A stretch of DNA of 64,000 nucleotides from Stegostoma tigrinum (lineage: Eukaryota), in the NCBI RefSeq assembly GCF_030684315.1, contig NC_081370.1:36660728-36724727 (forward strand). Reading direction: 5' to 3'. The translations under genes and the position numbers were made by a program. Below the pieces are notes generated by a model, which ran no database searches, was not told where the DNA came from, and saw nothing but the letters and a program-made list of their open reading frames with translations. This document shows positions 12,229 to 62,493 of the stretch, in pieces; position 1 is the first letter of the stretch, and every line of letters begins with the position of its first letter.

Positions 12229-12458
12229 GGAACAAAAACAGAAGTTGCTGGAAAAGCTCAGCAGGTCTGGCAGCATCTGTGAAGAAAAAAATCAGTGTTA
12301 ATGTTTTGGGCCCAGCGACCCTTCCTCGGAACTAGACACTGTTTTGGATTCAAAGCGTCAACTCTGATTTTTTTTTCTTCCTAAATGCTGCCAGGCCTGC
12401 TGAGCTTTTCCAGCTACATCTGTTTTTGTTCCTGATTTACAGCATCCGCAGTTCTTTC
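12229..12458. mobile_element. PLE-derived mini fold-back element
   Basis: Inverted arms ggaacaaaaacaga...gttaatg and gtcaactctg...tgtttttgttcc, with a ~27-nt tail on the right. Degenerate hammerhead in the left arm (rc of ~12296-12333). TSD degenerate. Confidence 0.75.
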
Positions 12459-12710
12459 CGTCCTCCCTGACTGCATGGCTATCCTACCACCAAACCCACC
12501 ACTGCCAGGAGTACAAGGTTGTACCATGTCTTCATAATCAGAGCTGAACTTAAACTAATTCCAACACTTGCTCACTGAAACACAGCAAAGATCAGAAATT
12601 GGACACCAGTGTCCCATTAAATTTTAGTGTTTGCTGCCCAAACTTCAAATTTTAAATGCACTTAAAAAGGGAAGCAGGAAATATTGGCAGATCAGCTTTG
12701 TGATAATTAC

Positions 12711-12825
12711 CCTGACACTGAGTTCCACGTTCTCCCCTCCATAGATCTCCATGCCTTCATCCAGTAAGCCAATCTCCTCAAAGTATAGTCTGTCTACCAC
12801 AAAACATCCAATCAGTGCAGGGCTT
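12711..12825 (-). CDS. GALNT18: GALNT18-like coding exon (probable exon 6), Gal/GalNAc-T motif
   Basis: gttttgtag|A AGC...GTC AGG|gtaatt; 115 nt. SPALIGCFVVDRLYFEEIGLLDEGMEIYGGENVELSVR; Tyr replaces Trp in the WGGEN motif, diagnostic of the Y subfamily. Confidence 0.95.
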
Positions 12826-13139
12826 CTACAAAACACACAAAGAAGGAAACAAAGCTGTGTTTAGATTCTCCTGCTGAAGATTTAAGATTATAAAATTTGT
12901 GCTGAGGTCTGACCAGCTCCTGGTCAAATGAACAAGAAAAAATTGAACATTTTTCATTTCATAAACATGTTGCAGATGTAGGTAAATCCAACATCAAATT
13001 CAGATTTGTAACATATTCAATATGCGCAGAGATGTTGTTCATAAGATTGTCATTTTGTCATCGACAATACAGCCAAAATAAGCAGGTGCCAAGTTGAAGC
13101 ATGTAATTTTCAAATCGCACAGTGTTCAGATCAGACACA

Positions 13140-13550
13140 ACTGACAATGAATCCAACACTTTGACTGGGAAATGATAAGTAACTTTCACATGTTATAATT
13201 GCCAGGTAATGACCACTTCCAACAAGGCAGAATCTAACCACCCCTCCGTGCTGTTCAGTGGAATTACCATCACTGAAGTGTCTGACATCAACATTCTGGG
13301 TGTTACCAATGACCAGCTCTATAAATGCTGTGGCTACAAGTGCAGGTCAGAGACAGGGAATTCTGCGGTAAGTAACTCACCTCCAGTCTTTCCAAAGATT
13401 GTCATCCATCTACAAGGCACAAGACATGAGGGTGATCGAATATTCTCCACTTTCCTGGATTCATGCAGTTCAAACAACATTCAAGAAGCTTGACATTATC
13501 CAGGACAATACAGACCATTTGAACAACATCCCATCCAGTACCCCAACACT
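13140..13550 (+). mobile_element. LINE RT fragment (CR1/L2-group, YKAQVRS..EY type)
   Basis: catctacaaggcacaag...gaatattctccacttt...aagcttgacattatccaggaca; same family as 25936-26520 and 35200-35400. Confidence 0.65.
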
Positions 13551-13947
13551 AAGCCCCTCCAAAACTAGTGCATAGTGGCAGTATACTCTGAGCTGGGTAT
13601 ATCAGTGAAGTATGTATCCTGAATAGGGGATATATGATATGTGGTGTAAACTTCAAATGAAGTATATCAACGAGGTGTGTACTCTCTGTAGGGTATACTA
13701 ATGATGGTGACTGTGTGTATGAGCGTTCGTGCATGTGTGGGGAGGGGTGGGGTTTGGGGCAGAGACAGAGAGAGACTGACTGGAGTAAGTTGTGGGTTGA
13801 CAGTTGTATACTCTGAATGTGGTATAAGAATAAGGGCGTATAGCCTTAATGCAGGCAACAGTAATTGTTATTAAGTCTTGCTGTTTTCTACTATAAAACT
13901 GTCAAAAGCGATCTAATGATCCTGTCAATTTTATGTTAGGGAAATGT

Positions 13948-14593
13948 AGTCAGAAGTCACACAACACCAGGTTGTCCAACAGGTTTATCTGGAATCACAC
14001 AAGCTTTCGGAACAGAGCCCTTTTGTCAGGTGCAGCGAGACAGCAGCACACACAGACACAGAGTTTATAGACAGAGAGATCAAGGGCAGAAAGATCAAAA
14101 GATCATACAACTAGTGTAAGTGCAGTGTCAAATGATAAGTCTCTGCAGGTGAACAAGTGTGTTAGACAATGCGTAAAGAGTTCAGAAAGTCAATGTCAGT
14201 GCTGTGCTGTCATGACAATCAGGCAGAGCCGTAGGAATATACAAAAGGTCACATCTCAGGTCAGACACTGAATTGTAGGCGTGAGGTCTTGTACAAAATC
14301 TGTCTCGGAGTTTTAACCTGGAATCAGGCTTGTTTTATTTTGAAAGCTGGAATTTATAAGATGCCACACTGCCTGGCTGTGACTACAACTTCAGTGTTTA
14401 TTTTGAACAAAATTGAATGTATCTGCAAATAAACAAACATCTTGGAAGAAATGATTAAGGCCATAGATTTATATGTGTGTGGGGAGGGAGCGTGGTGGTG
14501 GTCTTTAGGGGAGTGACAGAGGCAGACTATAAGCTGGTGTTGCGTGACTTCTGACTTTGTCCACCCCAGTCCAACACCAGCACCTCCACATCA
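13948..14593. mobile_element. Fold-back element of a second PLE family
   Basis: agtcagaagtcacacaacaccag (13948-13970) inverted against ctggtgttgcgtgacttctgact (14534-14556), then a 37-nt tail. Hammerhead-like motif on minus strand at 13998-14032 (cacCTGACAAaagggctctgttccGAAAgcttgtg). Related fragments at ~24940-25020 and ~42910-42992. Confidence 0.65.
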
Positions 14594-15252
14594 TGGGGAT
14601 ACATAATTAGATGTTGCTCTGAATTTAAACAAAACAAGTGAATTTACTTTCCCAGGCTAACCATTTATCTGGCAACACACAATTTTTCAGATGTCCTCAT
14701 TACATTAGGTTATGGCTCTGAAAGAATAAATTTTGAGAAACTACATTAAGCTTCACCCAATGATGTCAAAAGAACTTGGGTAAGGAAAAGCTGAACATTG
14801 CAGATCTTGTAAATGAAGACCTATATCTTTGGTCTCCTCATAGACATTGTTATTAAGACTATCTTACCAAAGGAATTTGTACCTGATTGCTATCATACAA
14901 TAAACTATACCTCGATTAAGACAAGATCCTCTTTTTGTTCATGCTCATTTGTAGTTTGTGGCTATCGCTGTAAATTAAGTAGATCCTTAGACCCATGCAA
15001 GGAATCAGAACGGCGGCAACAAACTAGTGTAACCATCTGATAGTGGTTATCAATTGCAACATATAAACCAGACCTGATTTGTGCCCTGTGGATAGTGGAC
15101 AGGACATGAGATGAGTTACTCATTTCAGAATTTTCAACTCCTTACCTGGTCTTGCGGCCACAGTTCCAGTGTGCCAGTTCCAGGCCCAAAGGAAATCTGT
15201 AAACATGTGAATAACAAAGGACACCAACCCAAACTCGTTTGAACTTAGTTAC

Positions 15253-15450
15253 CTGATCGGAGCAGTCACATTTCCCAGAGTCCACCATTCTTTGGGAGGA
15301 TTTAAGTAACGACACCATAATTCCCAGTCAAAACCTTGGGCCGATAGCGGATACTCTTCAATCTCAAAATTATCATACTTGATATTATCAAAGGAAGGAG
15401 ATATGATACGTGTTCTGTCTTCCTTTATTCTTGAGAGTATTGGCTCAGCC
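15253..15450 (-). CDS. GALNT18: GALNT18-like coding exon (probable exon 5)
   Basis: ttttcaag|G GCT...ATC AG|gtaact; 198 nt. AEPILSRIKEDRTRIISPSFDNIKYDNFEIEEYPLSAQGFDWELWCRYLNPPKEWWTLGNVTAPIR. Confidence 0.95.
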
Positions 15451-15539
15451 CTTGAAAAGTAAAGAGATTTTGAGTGGGATATTTTATCCGTAAAACACCG
15501 GTGACATTGGCAAGGCCAGCTTGTAACTACCCTTACAAG

Positions 15540-17480
15540 CATAGGAACATAGGAACAGGAGTGGGCCATTCAGCCCCTCAAGTGTGCTCCCCCATTCATT
15601 GTGGCTGATTTGTGGCCTAACCCCATTTCCAGCCTTGGGGCCCATTCCCTTCGATATTTTGGGTTAATAAAACTTCGTCTATCTCAGGCTTAAATTTAAC
15701 CATTGAATTAGCATTAATTGTTGTTTCACTTTCACTACTCTTTATATGTACAAGTGCTTTCTAACATCTCACCTGAATGGCCCAGCTCTAATTCTTAGAT
15801 GATGCCTCCTGGTAATAGAATATTCAACCAGTGGAAATGGGGTAGACAAAGAGACATAATCTTTCCCGATTAATATCCTGAAGATCTCAATTAGATCACC
15901 CCTTAACCTTCTAAATTCCAGAGAACAAATGTCTCCTCATATCTTGTCTTTGAAGCTCAGGTATCATTCTTAAAATCCTGCTTCGATATCCCTCCAGGGC
16001 CAAAACATCCTTCCAAATGTATGGTGTCCAGATCTGCACATAGCATTCAGTACAGGATAGTACAGCACACAGCACAGTGGGGTATAACTGCATCATAACA
16101 TTTACATTCTCATACTCAACCCCCTTAGATACGCCTTCTTGACTATTTTCTGCACTTTCTCATTGCACTTAAAGAGCTATGAATCTGAACTCCAAACTGC
16201 ATTGGACATCTAGTGTATTTAACTTAGTGCCTTCTTTAAAAAGTACACTGATCTATCCTTGGTTCAGTACAAAATAGACAACCTCACACTTGTTTATATT
16301 AAAATCTACCTTCCACAGTTTTGCCCATTCATCTAATCTATCAATATCCTGTTGTAATTTCATGCTGTCGTCAACCCTGTCTACAATGCTGCCTAATTTT
16401 GTATCATTAGCAAATCTGAATATCACATTTTTTATGCCATTATCTAAGTTGTTAATGAACATTGTAAATAATTGAGGCCCCAACACAGATTCATGTAGGA
16501 CACCACGAGTCATGTTATGCCAATTTGAGTACAAATCCGTAATTCTAACTCTGTTTCCCGCCACTCAACTGTGCATGTCAGTAACTTGCCCTCAGTTCCT
16601 TGGCCTTCCACCTAAGCTAACAGTGTCTTGTGTGGGACATTATCAAAAGCTTTCTGGAAGTCAATTGAAACAACATCCACTGACTTCCTCTGTCCACCAC
16701 CTTTGTCACCTCTGCACTCATCCTTCATGAATCCATGTTGACTCTCCCAGATTAACTTAATTTTTCTGAGGTGATCAGTTTTTCTATCCTCAGTTGTAGT
16801 CTCCAACAATTCCCGCATGGCACATGACAAGGTCTGTAATTTCCCGGTTTCCCTCTGTCACTCTTCTTAAAGAGCAGAGTGACATGAACAACTTTTGATT
16901 CCCAGAGGTACACTCCCTGAATGAAGGGAACAATGAAAGATTACAGTTAGGACATCAGCAATGTGCTCTCCTATCTACTTTAACACCCATGAATGGAAAC
17001 CATCAGGTCCTGAGATTTGTTACTCTCAGTTCCATTAATTTCTCCATTATTGATGATTTATTTAAGCAAATTTTATTTAGACACTGACCCTGATCATCTG
17101 TTAATTTCTTTGAGACTTTTGGCAAACTAGTCTCCTTTTCTGCTGTGAATATTGAGTAAAAATAATCATTTAGCGCATCTGTCATTTCCCCAAGGTCATT
17201 GATAATATCCCCACTCTCAGCCTTCAGTGGGCCAATACGACTCTTAATCATTGTTTTGCCTTTTCATAACTATAAAACCTCTTCTTATTGTCTTTTATGT
17301 CCCTTGCAGGTTTCCTTTCATAATCTTTTTCTGTGGGATCTGTACTGTTCTTTGCATTTTTGTCAGTCCTTTCTTTTAATTTTATGCTGTTCTTTGCCTC
17401 CTTAGATGTCGATGGCGTTTTTTGTGAGGCAGAGATTTTCTTTCTGATGGGTACAACTGCTTCTGAACAGCATTAAATAT
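15540..17480 (-). mobile_element. CR1 LINE ORF2 (RT) and 3' end, decayed
   Basis: ORF pieces SQHGF, IDFQKAFDNVPH, SVLGPQLFTMFINNL and FANDTKLG; 3' tail rc ataggaacataggaacaggag. Confidence 0.9.
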
Positions 17481-17494
17481 TTCTAAAATTTTAG

Positions 17495-18095
17495 CAAAGA
17501 TTCATAGCTCGGGTTGAGGCTGAGGTTGTTGACTTGCTCACCAGGCTGGCTTGTTTTTGTTCAGATGTTTCGTCATCATGCGAGGTAACATTATCAGTGA
17601 GGCCTCCAATGAAGCAATGTTATTCTAATCTGCTTGGAATTTATACTATCTATTCCGTTGAGGTTTTAGTGTCATTTCTGGTTTTGATCTGTATGGGTTT
17701 GTATATGGGGTCCAACTCTATATGTTTGTTGATTGTATTGCGGATTGAGAACCATGCCTCTAGGAATTCTCATGCGTGTCTATGGGAATTTGACTTGGGC
17801 TACTATGGTTACCTTGTCTCAGTTAAATTGATGGCCTTCGTTGTCTGAGTGTACTGATAATAAGAAGAGTTCATCATGCAAGCTGACGTTTGTGTATTCT
17901 GATGGCTAGTTTCCTTCCTGCCTGTTCGATGTAATGTTTGTAGCAGTTGTGTGGTATACTGTAAGCCATGTTGATTCCGCATGTTGTGGGGAATGGGGTC
18001 TTTAATCGTTATGTGTGTTTATCATAGTGTAGCTGTGGGCTTGTGTGCCACCATGATTCCTAGTGGTCTTAGGAGTCTCGTTGTCAGTTCTGAAG
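17495..18095 (-). mobile_element. Penelope-like element, Poseidon-type GIY-YIG region and 3' end with hammerhead-like motif
   Basis: Minus-strand frameshifted KDPIP...AYSIP..C.KHYIEQAGRKLAIRIH. Motif at rc 17562-17599 reads caCTGATAAtgttacctcgcatgatgacGAAAcatctg. Confidence 0.7.
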
Positions 18096-18344
18096 TGCAC
18101 AAATTTAGAAGGCCAGTTAAGAGTCAGTTGGCATTATGCATAGGGCAGATATGGTATGATCAGAGAGTTCCTTCCCTAAGAAAACCAGATAATTTCTTAT
18201 GATAACTGAGTCATTTCTTTGCCACCAATGACACTACCTTTCAGCTCCAGATTTTTATTTAACAAATTGGTAGTGTCTGGCTACCTTAGAGGGATTTGAA
18301 TTTATTTCTCTAGGTCTTCAGTCCAAGCCTCTGGATTATAGAGT

Positions 18345-19120
18345 CACAAGAGTCATAGAGTCATACAGCACGAAAACAGACCCTTTGGTCCAAACACTCC
18401 ATGCTGACCACAATCCCAAACTAAACTAGTCCCACCTGCTTGCTCCTGGCCCAAATCACTCCAAACCTTTCCCATTCATGTATCCATCCAAATGTCTTTT
18501 AAACATTTTAGTTGTACCCACATCCATCACTTCTTCAGGAAGTTCATTCCAAACTCGAATCACCCTCTGCGCAAAACATTTCCCTCATGTCTTTTTTAAA
18601 TCTCTCCTCTTTCATCTTTAAAATGTGTCCCCTAGTTTTGAAATTCTCCATCTTTGGGAAAAGATAACTACCATTAACTCGGTCTATACCTCTCATTATT
18701 TTATAAACTTTTATCAGGCCACCTCTGAACCTCCTATGCTCTAGTGGAAAAATGTCCCAGCCTATCCAGCGTTTCTTTATAACTCCAACCTTCTATTCAA
18801 GGCAACATCCTGGTAAATCTCTTCCAAACCCTCTCCAGTGTGATGATATCTTTCCTACAACTGGGCAACCAGAACTGGACACAGTATTCCGAACAGGCAT
18901 CACCAATATCCTATACAACCTCAACATAACATCCCAACTCTTGTACTCAAAGGACTGAGTAATGAAGGCAAGTGTGCCAAATGCCTATTTAACCACCCTG
19001 TCTATATGTATTGCAGACTGTAAAGAATTATGTACTTACACCCCTAGGTCCCTCTGTTCCTCAACACTACCCCAAGACCCAAACATTAATTGTGTAATCC
19101 CTACCCTTGTTCTTTTGTAC
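18345..19120 (-). mobile_element. CR1 (HER1-like) 3' part; host of nested insertions
   Basis: Tail rc (atagagtc)n and CR1 C-terminal sequence; continues at 21521. Confidence 0.85.
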
Positions 19121-21520
19121 CAGAGGTAGAATGGCACGCTGATCTCTACATCACTGAAGCCAGATGCAAAGTCTATGACACTTCCTCCTACCATCCTGTT
19201 GAGCATGACCCCAATGATCACCAAGGCATCATCTCCCAGACCATCAACAACCTCATATCTTTGGGAGATCTCCCATCCACAGGCTCCAATCTAATAGTTC
19301 TCCAACACGGCACCGCCTGTTTCTATCTTCTTCCCAAAATCCATAAACCCAACTGCATCAGTTGACCCATTGTCTGTGCCTGCTCCTGCCCCACAGAACT
19401 CATCTCCTCCCTCCCCAACTCCGTTCTTTCCCCTTTGATCTAAGAGTTCCCTGCCTACATTCAGGACATAGCCCGCATCTTCTTCCTTTTCCATAACCTT
19501 TTCCAAAACTTTCAATTCTCTGTTCCTGAACACCTCTTCTTCACATGGATGTTCAGTCCCTGTACACCTGTATCCCCCACGGAGATGGCCTAAAAGCCCT
19601 CCGCTTCTTCCTTTCTCATAGCCCCAACAATCCCCCTCCACTGACACTCTCATTCACTCAGGGGAACTGGTCCTCACCCTCAACAGTTTTTCCTTTGATT
19701 CCTCCCACTTCCTACCAACCAAAGGGGTGGCCAAGGGCACCACATGGGCCTGAGCTATGCCTGCCTGTTTGTGAGATTTGTGGAACAGTCCCTCTTCAAC
19801 AACTACACCAGGACCATCTCCCACCTCATTCTCCGCTACATTGATGACTGTATCGGTGCTGCCTCGTGCTCCCGCAAGGAACTCAAACTGTTCATCAACT
19901 TCAACACCTTCCACCTCACCCTCAAATTCACCTGGGCCATTTCTGGCACCTCCTTCCCCTTCCTGGACCTCTCTGTCTCCATCTCCGGTGACTGACTCAC
20001 CACTGACATCCATTTCAAACCCATTGACTCCACAGTTACATAGACTACATATCCCATATTCACAATTGTTTCACTTCCGCTGCATCTGCTCCCAGGGTGC
20101 GGCTTTCTAATCTAAGATCTCCTAGATATCCTCCTACTTTAGAGAGTATAGTTTCCCCTCCGCTGTCATTAAGGATGCCCTCAACCACATTTCCCCCATT
20201 TCCTGCACTTCTGCCATCAAACCCTCACCCTCCAACAACAATAAGGATAGAGTCCCCCTAGCTGTCACATACCACCCCACCAACCTCTGAATACAATGCA
20301 ACACCCTTTGACATTTCCACTACCTAGAATGAAACCCCACGACCAAAGAGATATTTCGCTCCCAACCCCTGTCTGCTTTTGGCAGGGACCATTCACTCTG
20401 TGACTCCCTTGTCAGCAACTGCTCTGCCCAGTGCCGTAAGAAACTACAGAACGTGGTGTGTACAGCCCAGACTATCACAGAAGCCAACCTTCCATCAACA
20501 GACTCTACTTACATGGCTTGCTGCCGCAGAAAGGCGTCAACATCATCAAGTACCCATTGCACACTAGTAATGACCTCCTACAACCTCTTCCGTCAGAGGG
20601 AAGATATAGGAGCCTGAACACATGCATGACCAGGGTCAGAGACAGCTTCTTTACAGCTGTTATCTGACTGTAAACTGGACTCTAGCCTTGAATAACGTAG
20701 CCTGCAATGTGACCTGTCTGTCTCTCAATCTTTCTGATCTGTACATCCATTGCTTGCTGTGATCTGCCTGTAAAGCTCAAAAGCAAAGCTTTTCACTGTA
20801 TTTCAGTACATGTGACAATAAAATCAAAAAATCAATCAGCCCCTCCACCATACCCAGTGCCTTTCCCTCCAGCCGCAGGAGATGCCACACCTGCCCTTAC
20901 ACCTCCCCTCTCACCTCCATCCAAAGCCCCAAAGAATCCTTTCAAATCAGGCAGTGATTTGCCTGCATTTCATCCAACCTGATATATTGCTCCCAATGTG
21001 GTCTCCTCTATATCAGGGAGACTGAACGCAGACTCAGGGACCGGTTTGCAGAGCATCTGCACTCTGCACGCACCAACCATCCCGATCTTCTGGTTGCCAT
21101 CCATTTTAACTCCCCCTCCCACTCCCCTGGTGACATGTCCATCCTTGGCCTTCTTCACTGTCAGAGAGTGAGGCCAAACATAAACTGGAGGAGCTACACC
21201 TGATATTCCACTTTGGGAGCTTACAGGCTGAATATTGACTTTGCCAGCTTCAAAATTTCTCCTCTTCCAACCTGTACATCTTCTGATTCACCTACCTGCT
21301 CCTCCTTTCCCACTGACCAACAATAATAAACTCCTACCTGCATCCACCAATCTCCATCTTATACCATCCCCCCAGCCCCAAACCCTCCCTCTATTTATTT
21401 CTGGGCTCCCCTCCCCGTCCCCAGTCCTGAGAAAGGATTTCGGCCCAAAATGCTGACTTCCCTGCTTTTCAGATGCTGTCTAACCCGCTGTGCTTTTCCA
21501 GTTCCACATTTATTGACTTG
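19121..21520 (+). mobile_element. Decayed Penelope-like element (Neptune-type): RT, Cys linker, GIY-YIG and pLTR
   Basis: YLLPKIHKP, MDVQSLYTCIPH, MGLSYACLFV, LRYIDDCIG, FLDLSVSI; GIY-YIG remnants at ~20960-21060; degenerate hammerhead at ~21423-21458. Confidence 0.88.
20416..20838 (+). mobile_element. Rex1/Babar-like LINE 3' end inserted into the PLE
   Basis: LLQPLPSEGRYRSLNTCMTRVRDSFFTAVI C-terminus; 3' end tgtgacaataaaatc...aatcaatca. Confidence 0.7.
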
Positions 21521-22268
21521 AACTGCGCCTGCCATTTTCCCACCCATTAACCCATTTGATCAAGATCCCTTTGTAATCTTAGAAGACTTTCTTTACTGTC
21601 TGCAATATCAACAATTTTGGAGTCAAGAGGGGACCTAGGAGCGATCCCAGAACTGCTCCCTGTGGAACAGGGACACAGGCCTCTCGTCCAAAAAGTAACC
21701 CTCTACCATCACTCTGTCTCCTGCCATTAAGTCAATTATCTATCCAATTGGCAAGTTCACCCTGAATCCCATGTGACATTACTTTACTAATTAGTCTACC
21801 ATGTGGAACCTTATCAAAGGCCTCACTAAAATCCAAATAAACAACGTCTGCTGCTGTATCATCATCAATGTTTTTGGTAACTTCCTCAAAAAACTCAATC
21901 AAGACAGTGAGACACGATTTTCCTCTCACAAAACCGTGCTGGCTATCCCTAATCAATTTTTGCCTCTCGAAATGTCCATAAATCCTATCTTCTATAATCA
22001 CCTCCAAAAATTTGCCTGCAACTGAAGTCAGACTCTATAGTTCCCTGGTTACTCCTTACAACTTTCCTTCAACAAAAGGTACAACATTAGCCACCCTCCA
22101 GTCATCAGGCACCTCACTCATAGCTATAGATGATGCAAATATTTATGCAAGGGGACTCGAAATTTCCTCCCTTACTTCCCACAACATTCCAGGATATGTT
22201 AGATCAGGTCCTGGAGATTTGTCCACCTATCTATTCTCTAAGACCTCCCGTACTTCCTCTTCTGTGAT
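21521..22268 (-). mobile_element. CR1 RT region, continuation of 18345-19120
   Basis: SQHGFVRGKSCLT...VYLDFSEAFDKVPHGRL. Confidence 0.9.
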
Positions 22269-22919
22269 CGTACAAGTGCGATGCTAGAAACCAGAAATAT
22301 AAACAGGAAATGCTGAAACACTCAGCAGGTCTGAAAGAGGAGAGAAGAACAGAGTTAACATTTCAGATCTGTGGTGTTTCATCTAAACTCATGTTTTTTT
22401 TCAACTAGTGTATTCAGCGAAAGTACCAATAACTCAGTTCCACATCTGGAATTATCTGTCAGTGTATAACCAGCAAGTTTGCCCAAATTTATGCCCATGA
22501 TATGACAGCTTGTGAGGTAAGGAATCTCAGTTTACGTGGATTGGCATCAGGTGAAATGATCTTGGAAGTTTTTGGATTGCTGTAAAATCCTAACTGGCTC
22601 ACAAGTGCCCTTCAAAGAAAGAAACCCCTGCTTGCTTTGGGCCTCCATGTGACTTCTGTCCTACACCACATGGGTGTCTCCTAAACCCCCTCAAGCCAAC
22701 AAGTAACGTGCATTGAAGACAACCTGGTCAGAATCACCAAAGGCAAGAGAAAAAAAAATGTAAAATGAAAGTTGAATTTCAGTTTAGATTTTAAAACATG
22801 CTTGTTTGTGGAACCTTGCTGTGCAAGAAATTAGGAATCTGGTTCTCTGAGTTACTGCAAAAGTACGCAATCAAAAGTTGCTAGATTCTGCAGCATACCA
22901 GGCAACCTGACACACTCAA

Positions 22920-23455
22920 GACAGAAAAGTACTGAGAGAGTGCTGTGTGCTTGAAAAGTCAATACAAAAAGCGCAGTGTACTGTACGAGGGGACATACTG
23001 TGGGAGGGCTATGCTGTAAAAGGGATAGCACTAAGTAAGTGCTAAACTATGGAGTGGCAGTGCCTTACTGAGACAAGGTAGCTCAGAGAGGAATGCTGCA
23101 ATGCAGGGTTGTAATATTGAAGGAGTGCAATGCTCGAAGGAAACTGCTGAGGGAGTACTCCACTGTTATAGATAACCAAGTCCCTTCTGTCCACTCAAGT
23201 TGATATGAAAGATCACACAGCACTGATCCTTTAAAAAGGAGTTCTTCCTGTGTCCTTGTCAATTTTAGTCCTTTGAACAACCACACTTTCACAAATGATT
23301 GTGTCATTACCAATGTTGGTAATTATGGAATCTTACTGTGTAAAAATTGATTGCTGTTATCCCTACATCTCAACACTACACTTTAAACTGTACTTCAGTG
23401 GGAGCAGACTTCTTGGGACATCTTGAGGTCATGAAATATATAATGCAAGTCGATC
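22920..23455 (+). mobile_element. DeuSINE with degenerate internal 33-bp repeats
   Basis: Repeated gtactgagrgagtgctg-like units at ~22930-23165, followed by Deu-like and 3' tail sequence. Confidence 0.6.
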
Positions 23456-25279
23456 ACTTTCTAAATTAATCCCGCAGTTAGGATCTCAAACAGAGCCAAG
23501 ATTGTAATGAAAATCGAACAGCTGATGAAGGGTTCACTGACTTGAAACTTGAACTCTGTTTCTGTCTCCAACAGATTGAACTTGAACTGCTGAGCATTTC
23601 CTGCATTTTCTATTTTTATTTCAGCATCCGCAGCATTTGTAGACAGGTTTGTTCCTGAGTCTAGCTTCATGACACAATGCCATCATTCTGTCCGACAAGA
23701 GGATAAGTCGTTCTTTGAAATGGGCTGGAAAAAAACATCCTAAAATTAAAGAAATTATGGATGGCAAGCACATAAATAGGGCATGAATATATGAAGAGAA
23801 CACCCCTTGGATTCATCCTAAATCCAATGGTAGGTTGCAATAGCTTTTCCTGTGAATAGTACAGTCCTCTCCCGTTTGCTCAGTTCATGTTAATTCATCA
23901 GGCTGCTCCATGACAGCAATAAATGAATATGTCAGCATCTCACAGTCTATTACTCTTTAGGCAAACTGATGTCACGTCACTGATATCTGAACAACTTTAG
24001 TTTCCCTACTCCATCAGCAACAAAAACAATTATTTTGAATTGATGCTATTTAAAGCTTCTATTTCACTTCAGATCATACAAATAGGATCAGTATTTGGCA
24101 GGATTTATTGAGTGTAGAATTTGAGAGTCCAGCCAGCAAAGCAGTGAACAGTCTGGAGCTAACAAATGCATGTGTTCCAGTAGCTGATGGGGCAGGACTG
24201 AGCCTGTTTTTCTGTTTCGCATGACAAAAATGTTTTAAGATGTGCAGCCTCAGTGTAAGCATGACAGAATAACATTGTTGCTGTGAACTCCTTTTGTTTA
24301 AGTGTAAGGTGATGGATTTAACGGATGTGGAACCAAGGAAGGTAGAAGGGGTTCAGACACATGTCATCTATGAAATGTATAACATCTAATTGGGCCTGAT
24401 AGGATAGATGCTGAGAGGATCATGGAATGCCCTACAGTGTGGAAATAGGCCCTTCGGCCCAACAAGTCCACGTGGATCCTGCCTTTTGGCAGCCCCTTCC
24501 AAACCTGCCAGCTCTCCAAACTAAAGGACAGGGCATCAGATTTATGGGGCTATAGCCAACTGAAAGTTTCCTCCAAGATGATCACTATCCTGATTTGGAA
24601 CTATAACACTGTCCCTTTGTGTCGCTGGATTGAAACCCCAGTGAGCCCTTCTTAAGATCAGCATGGATCATCCAATCAAATTGTCCATATAGCACTCAAG
24701 AAAGAGGTTCATCATCACAATGTCAAGTCTAGAAGTGAAATAAAAGAGGAGAAAGAAATATTGGATTAAAAGAGAGAACATAAAAGCCAGAAAGAAAAAA
24801 AACATAAGTTTTTTTAAAATATCTGACTATAGCAAATATCTGATGGAATGAGATGCTGCACTTAGTAAAAGTTCAATTTCTGTCTGAAAAGTTTTAATTG
24901 CTGCAAAAATAAACTATCACGATGAAAAGAGGCAGGACCCAATGAAGGAGCAGTGCTATGAAAGCTTGTGATTTCAAATAAACATGTTGGACTATAACCT
25001 GGTGTCGAGGAATTTCCAACTATAAAAAAAAGGGCTTAAACTGGATCAGACAAACTTACACCTTCTGTAGGAAGGTTCGTCTATGATATTCACTGAGGAC
25101 TGCACAATGTTCAGCATCATTCACAGCTCCTCAAGTACAGAAGTTGTCCATGTTCAAATGCAGTAAGACCTGAACAATGCCCAGGTTTGGGCTGACAAGT
25201 GACAAGGACAGAGGAGTTCAAAACTGGTGGGCATAATTTTAAGGTGAGAAGGGAAAGATTTAACAGGGACCTGAGAAGG

Positions 25280-25935
25280 GCACTACCTGTGAGATCCTAC
25301 ATGCATGCCCACTACACACTGCCCTCAAAGCAGCTATGGGGCGTAGAGACTATCACACATCTCCCTCTGGAATGTGCCTTTCCAAAGGAAATCTGGTGAA
25401 AGATCCAGTGGTTTTCGTTGAAATTTATCCTGAGCAGCTCCATGACAAAAGACTCTGCGCTCTACAATCTGTTCCCCAAGATGCGCATCGAGACAACCTC
25501 GACTGTACCTGGAAGACCATCAACTCAGTGAAAGACAGTCTTTGGTCTAAAAGGAAACTTGCGGTCTTCCAGTGCAAGGGGTTAACCTCAACTGGCACAT
25601 TCTAAGGCTTAGGATGATGAGCTGAGGGACACAAAAGCTTGGGGCAGCTGCCTCCAAAGTTCAGTGGGGAAAGGCCACCATCTAAGTTTTTTGGTCAAAG
25701 TATAATGGGTCCTGATCAGTTATCGGACTCTCTCGGTGCCTGAAATATATGTAAACAACATCTTGCATAAGTAAGGAATGCCTTGGTGTTTGTTGGAACA
25801 GTTGGGAAAGTCAAATTCCAATGTTTGTTTGTTTCTCCATATGCTAAAACTGTACAGAACCAAACTGCTTTAGTGACTGTGTATGTATATAAAGATTATT
25901 TATGAATAAACTATATATTTGAAATTTTAAAAAAT
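25280..25935 (+). mobile_element. Tx1/L1-clade LINE 3' end
   Basis: C-terminal Zn-knuckle-like ETITHLPLECAFPKEIW and WKTINSVKDSLWS; ends tgaataaa...aaaaa. Confidence 0.65.
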
Positions 25936-26520
25936 TGACCAGAAACTGAACTGGTCTATAAATGTAAACATTATGGCTACGAGAGCAGGTCAGAGGCTAG
26001 GAAGTCTTCAGTGAGTAACTCATCTCCTGGCTCCTCAAAGCCTGTCCACCATCTACAAGGCACAAGTCAGGAGTGTGATGGAATACTCCCCACTTGTCTG
26101 GATGAGTGCAGCCCCAACAACACTTCAAGCTCAATTTGATTGACATCACATCCACATTCACCCCATCCACGACTAACACTCTAGCAGCAATCAGTGCGAT
26201 CTACAAAATTTGTCAAAACTCCTTGGACAGCACCTTTCAAATGAACAACCTCTACTATATTGAAGGGCAGAAAATATATGGGAGAACCGCAAACCGCAAC
26301 TTTCCCATCCAAGCCATCCTTCATCCTGACTTGGAAATACATCGCTGTTCCTTCAATGTTGCCAGGTCAAAATCCTGGAATTCCCTCCCTAACAGCATTG
26401 TGCTTCCACCTACGCCAAATGAACTGCAGTGGTTCAAAAATGCAACCCACCACCACCTTCTAAAGGGTAACTAGGGATGGATAATAAATTCTAGCCCATT
26501 CAGTGACCGCCATTAATGAA
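25936..26520 (+). mobile_element. LINE 3' end (CR1/L2-group) sharing its tail with the tRNA-SINE at 53885
   Basis: YKAQVRSVMEYSPLVWMSA-type coding remnant, SKSWNSLPNSIV, tail agggtaactagggatggataataaat. Confidence 0.75.
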
Positions 26521-27804
26521 TATTTTAAAAATTGCACCGTGACAGGAACTTAATGCCATTCAATGTATTTTAACAGGCAACGAAAATGTAAGGTACCCTT
26601 TTCAGGATGCACTTTAGATGCAACCACAGACATTTTGCAGTTAACTTTGATTACTTGAAGTTAGTGTCTGGTTTTCACCTAAACAATGGTGAGTGCCTGA
26701 GCCTCACTGTTGCAGGCAGACAGGAAGATGAAGCACCGTTTAACCTGTACTGACAGTCAGGGAAGGTGCCTGAGCTGCAATCTAACTGAATATGCTCACC
26801 TTTTCTTCGCATATCTTATACACTTCGTTCCTGTAATACTTAATACCTCTGGTTAACAAATTATCAATCAAACGCTTTTTAAATTACTAAATGACCTCAC
26901 ATGAATTGATACTTGCACAAGAGAATTCCAAATACTTCCTATCCTTTGTTGACATTTTCCAATTTCATTCTTAAAAGATATGGCCTTATCTTTCAGATGA
27001 TCTGCCTCAGTCCTTGACTCCTAAAAACAATACAAATAGTTTCTCTTTACTTACCCGATCAATTATTTGGTTTCTACTAGTGATTTTTGGGCCATTGTAT
27101 ATTTTGCAGCAACTCAGATCTGCCATAAGGCACACCTCTACATCAGATTATGATTCATTAAACTATTAATCGACTCCACTAAGCTACTTGTCAAATTCAC
27201 TACTCTTATTATGACTTATTTCACTGCAGGGAAAATTTCAGCAATTAAACTTCAGCCTCTCTCAAGAACATGTTGAAAGTGGGTGACATAATTCTTTGTC
27301 AGATGTAATTGCATCAGGCAGTGAGACTGATTGGCATCATCCATTAATGGATTGAACTCACCGACAGCTTATCAGCTTCACAGCTTTATTTAATTTTCAG
27401 GTCTTTCATCAACTAGTCCTACACTTGAAAAAGAAGTCAACCCCTGAAAATCTTTTTGAATCAGGTAGACACCTGGGCTTGCTATCCTCTGGGAAGAATT
27501 TAGGCAAGTATCATTCCTATAAGATTGTGGGGTTGAGCAATCTGCTTCAAAGCTGCTGTGTTAACCTCAGGGAATGTGCCAATCATTCAAAGGGCTTTCA
27601 ACAGCAGTTTGTATATACAATAAAGATGAATAAGCAGCAAGGTTATGTTATCTATGATATCCATTGCACGTATAGAAAGTAAACTAAGGAATCACTTTCA
27701 GTAAAAAAACAAAGCAACAGAGAAAAAAAGTCTTGAACTTTTAGAGAGCCTCAACAGAGTAAAGCATTCCAAGGATTTTCATAAAAACAATGCATTTCAG
27801 TGTA

Positions 27805-28002
27805 CCACACTGTGTGGAGCTGGAGGAACACAGAAGTTCAGGCAGCAGAGAAGCAGGAACATTGGTGTTTCGGGTGAAGAAGGGTCCGGAACCCAAAGTG
27901 TCAACTTTCCTGTTCCTCTGATGCTGCCTGACCTGCTGTGTTCCTCCAGCTCCAAACTGTGTTGTCTCTGACTCCAGCATCGGCAGTTCTTACTATCTCC
28001 GA
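27805..28002. mobile_element. PLE-derived mini fold-back element with TSD
   Basis: Inverted arms meeting at a hammerhead remnant (tgaagaagggtccggaacccaaagtgtc); tail on the right. TSD catttcagtgta 27793-27804 / catttcactgta 28003-28014. Confidence 0.8.
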
Positions 28003-32125: not shown

Positions 32126-32180
32126 TCCGACAATTTACCACTTCCATCTTGGTAATCCACCACAAACCAATTCTCTACTA

Positions 32181-37644: not shown

Positions 37645-37672
37645 GACGTTTCGGGCCTAGACCCTTCATCAG
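37645..37672 (-). ncRNA. Minimal hammerhead ribozyme core, sense to the GALNT18 pre-mRNA
   Basis: Exact reverse complement of 39099-39126. Confidence 0.7.
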
Positions 37673-44454: not shown

Positions 44455-44531
<77 letters not shown>

Positions 44532-45862: not shown

Positions 45863-47234
45863 CTGGAAAGAAAGGGGAAAAAATTTACATTGATATAACG
45901 CTTTTCATGTCCTTGGGCCCTTCCAAAGTGTTTGCAGCTTTGAAGTGTGGTCACTGATGCACAGTGGGCATGTCTGATGGGTAAAATGAGGTAGTACATC
46001 AGAAATTTTAATGGCAAAAAGATGCTTAAGCAGATAAACAAGTTATTTCACAACAATGTGAGCATTGTTTATTCTTAAGCTGTATTTCTGGGTAATGCCA
46101 CCAATAGGTGGAGCATTGCAGTCCCCGAGTGATGTGAGATGCTCGTCGACAAAGTGGCTAAATGACTTTGAGACTGAAAATCATTGGAAGCAGGGAACAA
46201 GTAACCAGTCAGCAGCAATTGCTCACATTAAATTTTAATCTAGCTATAAAATCCATGAAAGCATAGCAACAATTTATAATCAGTCTGCAAATTTCTTTGT
46301 AAATTGTTCTTCTGGTGACTGATAAGAAGTTTTGTCTCTGAGAAGTTGTAGTATGATGTTACCTGACCATTAATCAGCTTTCTTTTCACTGAAACTAGGG
46401 TCTCTCCTGCCAAAGAAATGTATAGACTATAAATACGATTTGTGTAATTGCTGCTGTGATTCCCTGGACCTGACAACTCATTTAAAATTTAATGTTGTAA
46501 TGGCGTGATATCACAGGTGCTATTGGAATACAATGTCCGTTTTTGTTGTCAGGAACATACACTCCATTATTCTCAGCACACCAGGGTTAAATAGCATTTC
46601 TGCAGTAAAACTTCACCAACCAGACAGGCAGCATGGAAATGTAAACACTAGGATTTAAGAGTTAGAGACTTTGGACCCAAATTCCCACAATGTGGCTCTG
46701 AAAGCTGCAGATCCAGCCCATATGGGAAGTATAAATATTTGTTGAATTGTCCTTTTGTAAATATCACATTTAAACCCTTTGCTGCATCACCTTCCCGAGG
46801 TTATATGAGTGTGGGGTCTGAGAGTTATTGAAGAAGCATCAAGCAAAAATGTTCCAGTCACATAGGGAGGACTTTGGTTCTACTCCTGGCCATCAATTTG
46901 ATTTGCTTGACTAAAACTTGCATTTCACTTGCACTTTTCACAGCCCTCCTTAAAACTCTCTGCATCTCTACCTTGCTCTCCTTCTTTAGGATGACCTTTA
47001 GAAACTACTTCTTGATCACATTTGATACCTGAAGTTCCTGTGAAGTGCCTTTGGTTGTCTAAAATGTTGAGGACAATGTATTGAGGAATATCATTTCTTA
47101 CCATTCTGAGTAAAGCACTATCTCATCAAAATCAGTTGATCAAAGGGTGGTGGAAGGAAAGGTTTCAGCGTGGAACTGGGAGTTGAACATGAGGAATGGG
47201 GGGTGATTGGAGCGAGTCAGGAGCAGAAGAGCAG

Positions 47235-56347: not shown

Positions 56348-56561
56348 CAGAGATAATGGGAACTGCAGATGCTGGAGAATCCGAGATAACAAGGTATGGA
56401 GCTGGATGAACACAGCAGGCCAAGCAGCATCTTAGGAGCACAAAAGCTGACGTTTTGGGCCTAGACCCTCTGATGAAGGGTCTAGGCCTGAAACGTCAGC
56501 TTTTGTGCTCCTAAGATGCTGCTTGGCCTGCTGTGTTCATCCAGCTCCACACTTTGTTATC
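56348..56561. mobile_element. PLE-derived mini fold-back element; hairpin loop is exactly CTGATGA
   Basis: 85-bp arms 56385-56469 and 56477-56561, 37-nt tail on the left. Perfect TSD ttccataattcatt at 56334-56347 and 56562-56575. Hammerhead core 56470-56497. Confidence 0.92.
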
Positions 56562-57719: not shown

Positions 57720-58030
57720 CAGCTCCTCTGGCTGGGGAGTCTAGGATACAGGTAACAGTATCAAGGTAAAGTGTTGACCATTTAAGACTGAGATAAAGAG
57801 GAATTTCTTCACACAAAGAGTTGGGAATCTTTGGGATTCTCTCCCCAGAGAACAAAGTTGTTAATTATATCTAAAGCAGAGGTGGATCCATTTTTGGACT
57901 CAGGCAATTAAAGAATATGAAGATGGAGTGAGAAGTTGGAGTTGAAGTAGAAGAACAGCTAATATCTTACTGAACGATGGAGCAGGCTAAAGGAGCTGAA
58001 TTGCTATCTCCTGCTTCTAGTTCAAATGTT
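57720..58030 (+). mobile_element. CR1 3' end
   Basis: tttaagactgagataaagaggaatttcttc...ggagcaggctaaaggagctgaattg. Confidence 0.75.
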
Positions 58031-60488
58031 ATTTACATTCGGCCAGTCAAACATTCAAACTTCCTAGCTCAGAATTTAAGACTCCGGCCTCTTCAGTGTA
58101 AATCCCAATCATTTTGGGAAGTCTGATTCGTCCTGTATCATAAAGTCTGGTGCAGAAATGTCCCACACCCAATAATATAAACACAAAACATTTTGGAGAC
58201 AAAAGGCATGCTTGATTTCAAGATAAATGTGTAGTAAATTTTCCAGGCCTAAGATTTTACTGGCAGGCAATTCAAGACAAAGTCTAAACAATGCTCATTT
58301 GACTTTTGCATTTGCCACTTTGGCAGAGACAATTCACCATTCTAAAACAAAATTGAACATTTTGGCTGGACAAGGAGAAGTTTTTGATGAAAGTCCTGAA
58401 TAGTTTCAAATCCATTTCCACTTTCCCTTTCCACTTGGTTTTAAAACTGAACAACAGCTGCGTTTGGTGATGAGCAGTAGTTACAATCTTCACAGCACTT
58501 TTGAAAGAGTCATAGGACAAAATCTTCCCGGCCACAGAAAGAATTGGAAATTGACAGGCTAGTTGGGAGAATTGTGGCATACGGCCAGGGAGGAGCTTCT
58601 TGCTGTTAAGAGCAGTAGTCCTGCTTTCAAACCATGTGCTGACTGATGAACTGAGACTCTTGCTAATAAATGGCGAGGGACCTACTTGCATGCATTAGCA
58701 TATATTAATATCCTCAGTCTGACTTATCTCAGCTTATTGATATGCAGTTTCCATGGAACAAAATGATTGGCAACAATTTCCAATGTGAAAGTCAGAGGGG
58801 TACCTTGCTCCCCACTTGCCCCTCTGACCTTTGCCAATCACTAAGATCTCAGAACACGCTCCATGGACAGCAACCACATGCATCTCTGCCCACCAGCACC
58901 CGATCCAGGTCCCTATCAGCAAAGCAGTGTGCCAATTTGCCTCTTCCTGAGACGTCTAGGGCAATTGACAGGAGCCGTGCAGGGCAGCAACGCACTGGCA
59001 GCACTGGACTGCGTTCATGGCTGGGCTTTAAAGATGGCACTGGCTACAGGAAACCTGAGAAGTCCCGTCAGGAACTAATACTTACACCTGTGGCAAGTGG
59101 GAGAATATGATGAATAGGGCACAAAGGGGCATGGTGTAATGAGTTGAATCTGGTAAGGCAACATGTGAAAACTTGTAAGGCTGACAAAAAGAAAGCCTGC
59201 ATGAAACACTGCCAAAAATTAGACATGGACAATTTCTCATAAGATTAAGCTCATTGAATTTTACAGCAGAGGGGGAGGCTACTCTGCCCATTATTTCTTT
59301 TTTAGCTCTTGGAAAGAGTTATCCAATTAGTTCTGCTCCACCTACCCTTTCCCAATAGCCCTATTATCTTCCCACACAAGTATTTATCCAATTGCCATCT
59401 GAATTGACTTAGCTTCATGAGCCTTTTAGGCAGTGCATTCCTGATTTCTCCATTTCCAAAATACAATTAGTTTGCCAACTGAAGTGCAGTGACAGATTGA
59501 AGGTAATTACAAAGTAGTGTTCCAGTTTGAAAAGCAGAGCATGACGAATTGGCTTTGCTTCTGTTGTGGTCACCACAGTCACAGGACACATAGGGCCACA
59601 TTACAATCTCTGCTTTCAATCTGAAGGAACCTTCCAACTCAGAAATAATCAGGGCTTTTAATAAGAAAGGAAATCAACCTTTAGTTTTGGCACCAAATCT
59701 GCATCTCATTGGTTTTCAAGATGCAGGATAAGGAATCTACCTTGATTATCACAGCAAGCACACATACAGCCAACATTGAAACTTTACCTCAAAAGACCCA
59801 GTGAGCTGTCGGCCTTAAAGCTTCAGTTATCTATTCCACCCCATATTGCCTGATACATGCCTTGAAGTGTTTGCAGGATCAGCAAGAAGCCATTCGGCCC
59901 CTCAAATCAATCCTGTTATTCCATTATCTCATGGCTGATCTGAATCTTAAATCAATTTTTCTGCTTTGAACTCATAGCCCTTAATACATTTTTCTCACAA
60001 AAATCTAACAAAACAGAAATAGAGTGCACATTTCATCAAAGGCAAAATGTTAATTCTGTTTCTTTCTCCACTTGCTGTCCTGTTGACATTTCCAGCATTT
60101 CCTATTTTGATTTCAGATTTCCAGAGTATTTAATTTATTTATTTATCTCGGTTTTGAGATGTTAAACTGCCTTCCAGCCTCAGCAGATTTCATAGGGAGA
60201 AAAATCCAGATAATGACAGTTCTTTGTGTGTAGAAATACCTCACCTCCAAACAGCCCAGCTCTAATTTGGAAGACTTGTTCAAACTTCACCACCAGATAA
60301 AAGACTATTCAGAAGTTGAAATACCGACTCTGAGAATTAATTTAACCATTTTAAGTACTGTAATTAGTGCTTAAACTTGAAGGGTTTCAAGAAAATAAAC
60401 AAAAGACACTTAATACTGTGCTTTTCACAATTACTCACTATCACTATTAAAGTCTTCTTTACAGCCAATTAAGTAGTTTTGATGTATA

Positions 60489-62493
60489 AATGATAATGGG
60501 AACTGCAGATGCTGGAGAATCCAAGATAACAAAGTGTGAAGCTGGATGAACACAGCAGGCCAAGCAGCATCTCAGGAGCACAAAAGCTGATGTTTCAGGC
60601 CTAGACCCTTCATCAGGGAGGGGGATGGGGAGAGGGTTCTGGAATAAATAAGAAGAGAGGGGGAGGCAGACCGAAGATGGAGAGAAAAGAAGTTAGATGG
60701 AGAGGAGAGTATAGGTGGGGAAGTAGGGAGGGGATAGGTCAGTCCAGGGAAGACGGACAGGTCAAGGAGGTGGGATGAGGTTAGTAGGTAGGAAATGGAG
60801 GTGCGGCTTGAGGTGGGAGGAAGGGATGGGTGAGAGGAAGAACAGATTAGGGAGGGGATGATCTGGGCTGGTTTTGTGATGCAGTGGGGGGAGGGAACGA
60901 ACTGGGCTGTTTTTGGGATGCGGTGGGGGAAGGGGAGATTTTGAAGCTTGTGAAGTCCACATTGATACCATTGGGCTGCAGGGTTCCCAAGCAGAATATG
61001 AGTTGCTGTTCCTGCAACCTTCGGGTGGCATCATTGTGGCACTGCAGGAGGCCCATGATGGACATGTCGTCTGAGGAATGGGAGGGGGAGTGGAAATGGT
61101 TTGCGACTGGGAGGTGCAGTTGTTTATTGCGAACTGAGTGGAGGTGTTCTGCAAAGCGGTCCGCAAGCCACGGCTTGGTTTCCCCAATGTAGAGGAAGCC
61201 ACACTGGGTACAATGGATACAGTATACCACATTGGCAGATGTGCAGGTGAACATCTGCTTAATATGGAAAGTCATCTTGGGGCCTGGGATGGGGGTGAGG
61301 GAGGAGGTGTGGGGGCATGTGTAGCACTTCCTGCGGTTGCAGGGGAAGGGGAAGGCCCACCGACTCCCACAGCTACCTAGAATACACCTCCTCCCACCCA
61401 CCCTCCTGCAAAAATTCCATCCCCTATTCCCAATTCCCCCGCCCCCACCACAACCTCCCCAAGAGGATCCCCCTCATTCTCATACACCACCCCAACAATC
61501 TCTGGATACAACGCATCATCCTCCGACACGTCCACCATCTACAATCCGACCCCACCACCCAAGACATTTTTCCATCCCCACCCTTCTCTGCCTTCCGGAG
61601 AGACCACTCTCTCCATGACTTCCTTGTTCGCTCCACACTCCCCTCTAACCCCACCACACCCGGCACCTTCCCCTGCAACTGCAGGAAGTGCTACACATGC
61701 CCCCACACCTTCTCCCTCACCCATATTCCAGGGCCCAAGATGACTTTCCATATTAAGCAGATGTTCACCTGCACATCTGCCAATGTGGTATACTGTATCC
61801 ATTGTACCCGGTGTGGCTTCCTCTACATTGGGGAAACCAAGCGGAGGCTTGGGGAACGCTTTGCAGAACACCTCCACTCGGTTCGCAATAAACAGCTGCA
61901 CCTCCCAGTCGCGAACTATTTTAACTCCCCCTACCATTCCTTAGACGACATGTCCATCATGGGCATCCTGCAGTGCCACAATGATGCCACCCGAAGGTTG
62001 CAGGAACAGCAACTCATATTCTGCTTGGGAACCCTGCAGCCCAATGGTATCAATGTGGACTTCACAAGCTTCAAAATCTCCCCTTCCCCCACTGCATCAC
62101 AAAACCAGCCCAGCTCGTCCCCTCCCCCCACTGCAACCCAAAACCAGCCCAGCCTTCTCTGCCTCCCTAACCTGTTCTTCCTCTCAGCCATCCTTTCCTC
62201 CCACCTCAAGCCGCACCTCCATTTCCTACCTACTAACCTCATTCTGCCTCCTTGACCTGTCCGTCTTCCCTGGACTGACCTATGCCCTCCCTACTTCCCC
62301 ACCTATACTCTCCTCTCCACCTATCTTGTTTTTTCTCCATCTTCGGTCCGCCTCCCCCTCTCTCCCTATTTATTCCAAAATCCTCTCCCCATCCCCCTCT
62401 CTGATGAAGGGTCTAGGCCCGAAACGTCAGCTTTTGTGCTCCTGAGCTGCTGGTTGGCCTGCTGTGTTCATCCAGCTCCACACTTTGTTATCT
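60489..62493. mobile_element. Palindromic Penelope-like (Neptune-type) insertion
   Basis: Inverted arms ~60523-61349 and 61666-62494; spacer is extra 5' PLE sequence; ~34-nt tail on the left. TSD tagttttgatgtata at 60474-60488 and 62494-62508. Hammerhead core 62401-62428. Confidence 0.93.
61356..62255 (+). pseudogene. PLE ORF C-terminal fragment: RT thumb, Cys-rich linker, GIY-YIG
   Basis: PTDSHSYLEYTSSHPPSCKNSIPYSQF...FPCNCRKCYTCP...NVVYCIHCTRCGFLYIGETKRRLGERFAEH. The Cys-rich linker between RT and EN is characteristic of the Neptune clade. Confidence 0.88.

Follow-up and report, generated by a model that had tools for sequence, protein, structure and literature searches.

The GALNT18 locus and its seven insertions

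We analysed a window of 64,000 nucleotides (nt) from Stegostoma tigrinum (contig NC_081370.1, positions 36,660,728 to 36,724,727), which contains seven insertions related to Penelope-like elements (PLEs), and surveyed the same elements elsewhere in the genome. We conclude that such insertions are 5′-truncated copies of endonuclease-positive (EN+) PLEs, joined head-to-head with a single tail and a single target-site duplication (TSD), and that both nicks of the target probably primed on the same sense RNA. Exons 2 to 6 of the host gene GALNT18 lie on the minus strand at 45663-45875, 35679-35846, 28478-28669, 15249-15452 and 12708-12830 (span 12708..45875). Since exons 1 and 7 fall beyond the window, the whole window lies within the gene and all seven insertions are intronic. 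A host exon is 98% identical to GALNT18 of Rhincodon typus.

Self-BLAST and local alignment revealed inverted arms in every one of the seven insertions, one arm being tailed and the other untailed, in agreement with an earlier note made from the sequence of this window. The same note had described a size-graded series, which amounts to a spread of 5′ truncation, and five TSDs of 12-16 bp, which are indeed clear at five of the seven sites. The best-preserved case is a young family A insertion in intron 2, called 37583, which spans 37571..39240 including a TSD without mismatches (37571-37586/39225-39240, 16 bp). Its untailed arm extends to 38364 and its tailed arm from 38366 to 39224, with 99.6% mutual identity. 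A remnant coding for a GIY-YIG endonuclease is found on the plus strand at 38362..38748, with a mirror copy on the minus strand at 38023-38376. Downstream on the plus strand follow a predicted transcript start at 39095 (the C of CTCTCTGA, 39095..39128, matching the TCT motif described below), the core of a minimal hammerhead ribozyme (39099-39126) with a predicted cut ahead of AGC at 39127, and a 33-nt tail (39192..39224) separating two putative priming sites that both end in TATCT.

Intron 1 harbors two further family A pairs. The long pair (60489..62493) consists of a tailed arm (60489-61349) and a longer untailed arm (61350-62493), retains linker and endonuclease (EN) coding remnants at 61353-62084, and is flanked by a 15-bp TSD without mismatches (60474-60488/62494-62508). 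The short pair (56348..56561) has a tailed left arm and an untailed right arm beginning just 5′ of the hammerhead core, between 14-bp duplications that again show no mismatch (56334-56347/56562-56575). An older A-type insertion in intron 2 (39419..39625) has a partly decayed left tail and a 13-bp TSD with one mismatch (39406-39418/39626-39638), and a family D pair in intron 4 (27805..28002) a right-hand tail and a 12-bp TSD with one mismatch (27793-27804/28003-28014). The family B pair in intron 6 (12229..12458) has its untailed arm on the left (to ~12333) and its tailed arm on the right, both with decayed hammerheads; its candidate decayed TSD of 16 bp (12212-12227/12459-12474) matches at 11 of 16 positions, all five mismatches being transitions, and none of 400 random flank pairs scores equally. 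In the family C insertion of intron 5 (13948..14593), a long untailed arm on the left is element-derived to at least 14481, the inverted part comprises only a 26-bp core plus a 37-nt tail on the right, and the TSD is a weak candidate that 0.5% of random flank pairs match.

A strict hammerhead descriptor gave four matches in the window, compared to a mean of 0.03 in 30 shuffles. Both arms of 37583 retain an intact core, as does a single arm of 56348 and of 60489, whereas the cores of 12229, 13948, 27805 and 39419 have decayed. The motif expected ~100 nt from the full end is thus present, whereas its core starts 115-130 nt from the tailed end. An Rfam scan of the window at E ≤ 5 left the minimal hammerheads of the insertions undetected and produced sub-threshold microRNA (miRNA) matches; folding of six termini showed ordinary stability (z from –1.4 to +1.4).

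Additional PLE termini, mostly single-armed in appearance, were noticed at 32306-32428, 49295-49374, 52943-53030, 11080-11232, 982-1100 and 41167-41226. At 42869-42971, matches on opposite strands look like an eighth, small two-armed copy of family C.

The insertions derive from EN+ Penelope-like elements

Sequence comparison confirmed family A as an EN+ PLE with a reverse transcriptase (RT), a GIY-YIG endonuclease and a Neptune-type linker. The protein encoded by a family A open reading frame (P0001, locus L143) matches RVT_1 (E 5e-6) followed by a C-terminal GIY-YIG domain (E 0.002), both just below the Pfam cut-offs. Many of its 780 homologues bear both RT and GIY-YIG annotation; the nearest named proteins are from S. 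tigrinum (93%) and Chiloscyllium punctatum (72-74%), and the window arms of 37583 and 60489 are 74-96% identical to it. Between GIY and YIG, P0001 carries two cysteines (VVYCIHCTRCGFLYIG), matching the cysteine pair of the CCHH finger that is defined for EN+ PLEs (PMC8557442). The CX2-5CxxC finger CNCRKCYTC ahead of EN is a feature of the Neptune clade, also found in Nematis (PMC8557442). Membership in the Penelope/Poseidon clade was considered and rejected, because it would need this linker finger to be absent.

The organization of the element is visible at locus L142, where a 62-nt inverted untailed arm and a 334-nt upstream copy precede a 3.6-kb unit that ends in the tail, the tail being sequence that continues into the next unit. 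The pseudo-long terminal repeat (pLTR) of family A thus has the partial-tandem layout, the inverted copy and the one-sided tail (33 nt), and contains a predicted minimal type I hammerhead (CTGATGA, a 4-bp stem II and GAAACGTC).

The earlier note assigned the insertions to several PLE subfamilies. Families A, B and D can indeed be tied to RT-EN sequences: termini of family B lie 355-570 nt downstream of RT/EN matches of 46-52% identity, and a D-type terminus at 21444 follows RT-EN sequence at 19126-21263. For the family C of 13948 this link was not found, as no RT-EN match lies within 2 kb of any sampled terminus, these copies being few and short; its architecture and decayed hammerhead fit a PLE. 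A miniature inverted-repeat transposable element (MITE) or other DNA transposon was dismissed as an explanation, since symmetric, uniform terminal inverted repeats would be expected and we found a one-sided tail and arms of 39 to over 2,600 nt.

The D-type terminus belongs to an older PLE copy at 18300-21510, whose RT-EN part is 47-50% identical to the family A protein and whose untailed terminus covers ~21444-21506. Another copy on this contig, at a distance of 1.05 Mb and with a protein match of 98%, is not a segmental duplicate of the region, as the flanks do not align. Elsewhere (C1:187869899-187870703), a piece of PLE core has given rise to a satellite-like 46-bp tandem array.

One tail and one target duplication per pair

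To describe the elements beyond the window, blocks amounting to 1.28 Mb on 11 contigs were picked without regard to content, and family A was surveyed in detail in 1.144 Mb of random blocks. Tails were called without gaps, as a loosely gapped version over-called them. Exactly one tail is present in 47 of the 55 family A pairs; two pairs have both tails, four have neither and two are unclear. Genome-wide counts, which are sequence-pattern matches, gave the same picture. Among 24,492 short family A pairs (within a 30-nt length window), 11,820 have a left tail and 11,664 a right tail (together 23,484), and only 338 have both, compared to about 5,600 expected if the arms chose independently; these ratios are approximate because the tail patterns differ slightly in their number of fixed letters. 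None of 21 family B pairs is double-tailed (12 with one clear tail, seven with one unclear arm, two with neither), and all three family C pairs are one-tailed. Tailed and untailed ends alike terminate in TATCT, to within a few bases.

A TSD was found in 40 of the 55 pairs, with a mode of 14-15 bp, compared to 1 of 300 mismatched-flank controls. The duplications are 64% AT against a background of 58%, so that no microsatellite targeting is seen. The tail and TSD lengths of these insertions are therefore fixed, not random as the earlier note had allowed for. The near-universal single tailed arm, together with the fixed arm stops described below, makes it likely that the two cut DNA strands copy one and the same RNA, starting from two sites.

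Arm lengths within pairs are correlated (rho 0.69). Among the 47 one-tailed pairs, the untailed arm is the longer one in 23 (as in 60489), the tailed arm in 14, and 10 pairs have equal arms. The 52 junctions that could be scored are mixed: 18 are blunt, 19 contain inserts and 15 show microhomology.

At the loci L180 and L226 and in the list of short pairs, some junctions carry palindromic additions (AGAG before CTCTCTG), which could reflect a brief fold-back of the run-off end of the complementary DNA (cDNA) before joining.

Paired insertions are routine throughout the genome

A single family A 38-mer has 131,038 exact matches in the genome. Outside the window, the 1.28 Mb of blocks contain 113 head-to-head pairs, or one per 11 kb, a rate to be read as an upper bound because the three remaining orientations account for 13-34 pairs compared to 120 head-to-head ones. 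The inverted product is thus a routine outcome genome-wide, as the earlier note proposed, and the spacing of about one per 9 kb in the window is ordinary for this genome: seven pairs against 5.65 expected per 64 kb (P = 0.34) indicate no enrichment.

Unpaired arms are also frequent, with 109 arms compared to 55 pairs in the random blocks. We examined 102 unpaired arms, assigning classes by eye; 26 have a TSD, and the 76 without one were left out of the classes. Accordingly, the 66 TSD-verified family A insertions in the 1.144 Mb comprise 45 two-armed insertions, 9 clean single arms and 12 of neither class. Clean single arms flanked by a TSD terminate at one or the other of the two putative priming sites. 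We also considered whether all single arms conceal a minute second one. This did not hold: only 5 of the 26 TSD-bearing unpaired arms did so and 9 were clean singles.

Arms stop at a predicted transcript start and a predicted ribozyme cut

We then counted arm starts genome-wide, requiring the two letters ahead of the element sequence to be foreign to it. Arms begin at CTCTCTGATGA, 4 nt upstream of the hammerhead core, in 9,645 cases, compared to 561 at a control position; 75,133 arms read through. In 83 of the 100 matches listed, the letter upstream of such an arm is G (AG 56, GG 14, TG 13). The same 100 matches contain 13 TG but only three TT plus TA (P = 3e-5), and this excess does not come from the partner arm, which can supply AG and GG but never TG. 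At the single-arm locus L247 the extra G lies outside the TSD, while at three other single-arm loci it may be a letter of the TSD or of a tiny arm. An extra G marks the copied cap in full-length L1 insertions (PMC11702581), and the C of the start site is the +1 of a YCTYTYY TCT motif as defined in PMC4581360. Thus, the pile-up 4 nt before the core likely corresponds to a capped transcript start, a reading drawn from these sequence features. Short copies of family B start 3-6 nt before their own core, at an initiator-like TCAGT (18 copies, by eye).

The second position is the ribozyme cut, which we presume to lie after GUC from the standard type I hammerhead layout. Here 3,676 arms begin, compared to 1,320 at a control GGCC palindrome common to more subfamilies. 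In 44 of the 100 matches listed, the two arms terminate together at the cut position and overlap in AGCT, compared to 6 of 100 at the palindrome control. Among the first 20 non-symmetric cut-site loci, 15 have an inverted partner, two are single arms and three are fused to other element sequence. The partner is no longer than the cut RNA (≤98 nt) in 12 of the 15, compared to 16 of 94 arms generally (L224 judged by eye), and the one-tail rule is kept in five of six symmetric cut-site loci. These patterns are indirect signs that the pile-up may represent an RNA end made by ribozyme self-cleavage. At three loci (L236, L238 and L239), the cut-site arm is preceded by same-orientation tail or ORF-start sequence, a pattern that suggests template jumps from the cut RNA end, or a circular template.

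A probable mechanism: two nicks, two priming sites and one or two RNAs

Twin priming, in its one-RNA and two-RNA forms taken together, very probably accounts for the pairs, and the twin-priming-like integration proposed in the earlier note is supported by the results above. In the scheme we consider probable, a predicted RT-endonuclease dimer would nick both target strands and each free end would prime on the same sense RNA. The nicks would be staggered by ~14-15 nt, giving rise to the observed TSD; nicking of both strands has been shown in vitro for a lizard PLE, in which both strands are extended from two internal sites bracketing the tail by a protein predicted to form a dimer (PMC11167929). 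One nick would then prime at the distal TATCT, producing the tailed arm, while the other would use the proximal TATCT, located 33 nt 5′ of the first, and produce the untailed arm. This step would explain the one-tail rule, the assignment of sites to nicks being our suggestion. Each cDNA would extend until the RT drops off or reaches the RNA 5′ end, be it the likely capped start or the likely ribozyme cut, consistent with the two pile-ups. Finally, the cDNA 3′ ends could be joined bluntly, via microhomology or with a few added bases, as in the three classes of junctions, and repair would be completed by fill-in. Extension of one nick alone would leave a single tailed or untailed arm. Priming is not confined to the RNA 3′ region named in the earlier note: a large number of short arms look like run-offs from the pLTR copy at the 5′ end.

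We prefer the use of one RNA because it most simply explains why pairs have one tail, why arm lengths correlate and why arms stop at common positions. The arms of a pair are also closely related: in 14 of the 19 long pairs, no more than 10% of diagnostic columns disagree, a level reached by 7.6% of random pairs, and short-pair arms differ at 19 of 382 diagnostic columns, compared to 43% for random arms.

Several observations weigh against this preference or against its individual steps. Subfamily concordance would be equally expected from successive subfamily activity or from conversion, and double-tailed pairs are just as concordant (8 of 97 versus 19 of 382 columns). Among the 19 long pairs, two have arms that disagree at ≥25% of diagnostic columns and lack clear donors; in a further TSD-flanked pair (C38 29550), the arms resemble different subfamilies. 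Moreover, the partner is longer than the RNA end allows at 3 of 15 cut-site loci and at 1 of 8 start-site loci with a scored partner; a second RNA or another pLTR copy must therefore take part in at least some events. The trailing RT would presumably need to displace the leading cDNA. As to the RNA ends, a 4-nt palindrome and a U-run are found at the cut site and could favor stops or joins without cleavage, the TCT match sits in a pyrimidine-rich stretch and says little by itself, and the lizard study saw no RNA reads that terminate at the cut and found cleavage unneeded in vitro (PMC11167929).

The strongest alternative is twin priming in which each subunit uses an RNA molecule of its own. 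The protein or the order of nicking would then determine the tail asymmetry, and the minimal hammerheads would pair so that both RNAs are cut jointly. We regard this alternative as rather unlikely. It accounts for the one-tail rule equally well, requires no strand displacement, and agrees with the over-long partners and with the one to three long pairs that look discordant. Minimal PLE hammerheads are, in addition, thought to act as dimers (PMC4209133), which would produce two cut-ended arms. What speaks for a single template instead are the correlated arm lengths, the 12 of 15 cut-site partners that stay within the cut RNA, and the youngest pairs, whose arms are mutually closest among the sampled copies (seven pairs, arm distance ≤0.013). 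Arm discordance in double- versus one-tailed pairs was tried as a discriminator between one and two RNAs and gave no separation.

In a published model (PMC3846280), the inverted form arises by self-priming: a cDNA, or in the rotifer PLE proposal an antisense RNA, folds at a palindrome and copies itself, and the endonuclease trims one tail. Near-identical, length-correlated arms and some perfectly palindromic junctions would fit such a process. A first cDNA starting at the tail, however, only permits a shorter untailed arm, and for this reason the untailed-longer pairs (23 of 47) largely refute simple cDNA fold-back and their polarity favors twin priming. The antisense variant is disfavored because one pile-up lies at a sense-strand start that carries an extra G and the other at a ribozyme cut in the sense strand, and both are intelligible only with a sense-strand template. 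With the mixed junctions and the TSD-bearing single arms that end at either site also speaking against it, we judge fold-back to be quite improbable.

The earlier note had named empty sites as a check for separately arriving arms. For 37583, the orthologous site of a related shark contains one copy of the target and neither arm. In a 638-nt contig from this shark (run X8), letters 27-424 correspond to 37174-37569 and letters 425-625 to 39225-39425 of the window, and a 295-nt contig (run X12) shows the identical join; the contig records were paired across two comparisons by length, depth, strand and adjoining positions. This result leaves the claim unrefuted and excludes an ancestral single arm, yet strictly not two later insertions. 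The 39419 element is present in the related shark, with both ends seen. Separate arrival of the arms, by homing of one copy into another already in place, or their later formation by inverted duplication or conversion, is the least credible explanation: PLE endonucleases are able to cut their own pLTR (PMC11167929), nested and complex loci exist and unpaired arms outnumber pairs, but a single TSD encloses the whole pair in 40 of 55 cases, the 37583 site is empty of both arms, and independent events would not leave just 338 double-tailed pairs in a set of about 24,000.

Relation to known systems

Inverted pLTRs, one-sided tails, TSDs and hammerheads are published features of PLEs (PMC8557442, PMC3846280, PMC4209133, PMC2377424, PMC8969392), and retrozymes have been linked to pLTRs (bioRxiv 2026.07.22.740005). 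Class and architecture are thus known; what is new are the genome-wide numbers, from copies that are unusually abundant and mechanistically informative. Literature searches, at the level of their listings, found no paper with a genome-wide one-tail rule, cap-G run-off or cut-site pile-up for PLEs, although the supplements of PMC11167929 and PMC8557442 may bear on this; the families may already be catalogued in Repbase or Dfam.

The closest relatives are the EN+ PLEs Neptune and Nematis (PMC8557442; PMC3846280; PMC2377424), which share the single RT ORF with C-terminal GIY-YIG, the CX2-5CxxC linker, the partial-tandem pLTR (seen in L142), an inverted 5′-truncated copy, a tail of 30-40 nt at one end, the TSD and the pLTR hammerhead. 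In the shark, by contrast, most TSD-verified insertions (45 of 66) consist of two short arms and lack a full ORF, and the density is about one per 11 kb. TSDs of rotifer PLEs are 8-10 bp long, compared to 14-15 bp here, where no microsatellite targeting is seen.

Poseidon of Anolis carolinensis, studied in vitro (PMC11167929), resembles the shark elements in its two internal RT starts bracketing the tail, the cutting and extension of both strands and a minimal hammerhead upstream. It belongs to another clade, lacks the linker finger and has an ORF starting in the hammerhead, whereas the first ATG of L142 lies ~35 nt after the tail. That study saw no strand preference in the use of its start sites, and its RNA-seq data gave no hint of cleavage; in the shark pairs, the two sites show one-to-one coupling, and arm ends accumulate at the cut. 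The closing model of the study does not derive the inverted form.

L1 twin priming (PMC11702581) shares the priming of a second cDNA by the second target end, TSDs of 12-18 bp and the extra G at complete 5′ ends. L1 arms, however, copy adjacent, non-overlapping parts of the RNA from an arbitrary internal site, while in the shark the same part is copied twice from two fixed sites, resulting in a hairpin. The short shark copies also look like MITEs in their inverted repeats and TSDs and have the type I hammerhead in common with non-LTR retrozymes; they differ from both in their asymmetric arms of variable length, their derivation from a PLE 3′ end and the absence of tandem arrays. Short copies could be mis-annotated as MITEs or miRNA hairpins.

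PMC8557442, PMC3846280 and PMC11167929 treat the origin of inverted pLTRs and of the one-sided tail, the RNA strand that is copied and hammerhead cutting in vivo as open questions. Tens of thousands of copies now constrain the mechanism, with one tail per pair, either arm being the longer one and stops at two exact RNA positions. More tentatively, the ~200,000 integration events could be read as an in vivo fossil record of an asymmetric dimer that primes both nicks on one sense RNA at the two TATCT sites, of a transcript start 4 nt before the core, and of hammerhead cutting in the germ line that leaves cut RNAs usable as templates; we consider this extended reading slightly less likely than not. 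At about one hairpin per 11 kb, the pairs may be a large potential source of intronic double-stranded RNA.

Other features of the window

Nested inverted segments not derived from PLEs occupy 32008-34356 (32181-32256/34281-34356, 93%; 32433-32815/33883-34253, 79%; 32008-32053/33707-33752, 98%). They have almost no further copy in the 1.3 Mb sampled, and a PLE arm lies within their left part. Two related arrays of a 33-bp minisatellite, ~73% alike, are located at 9960-10400 and 49420-49860 and result in repetitive ORFs. Fragments of long interspersed elements, encoding parts of RT and AP-endonuclease, are found at 16253-16564, 21732-22034 and 7682-7957.

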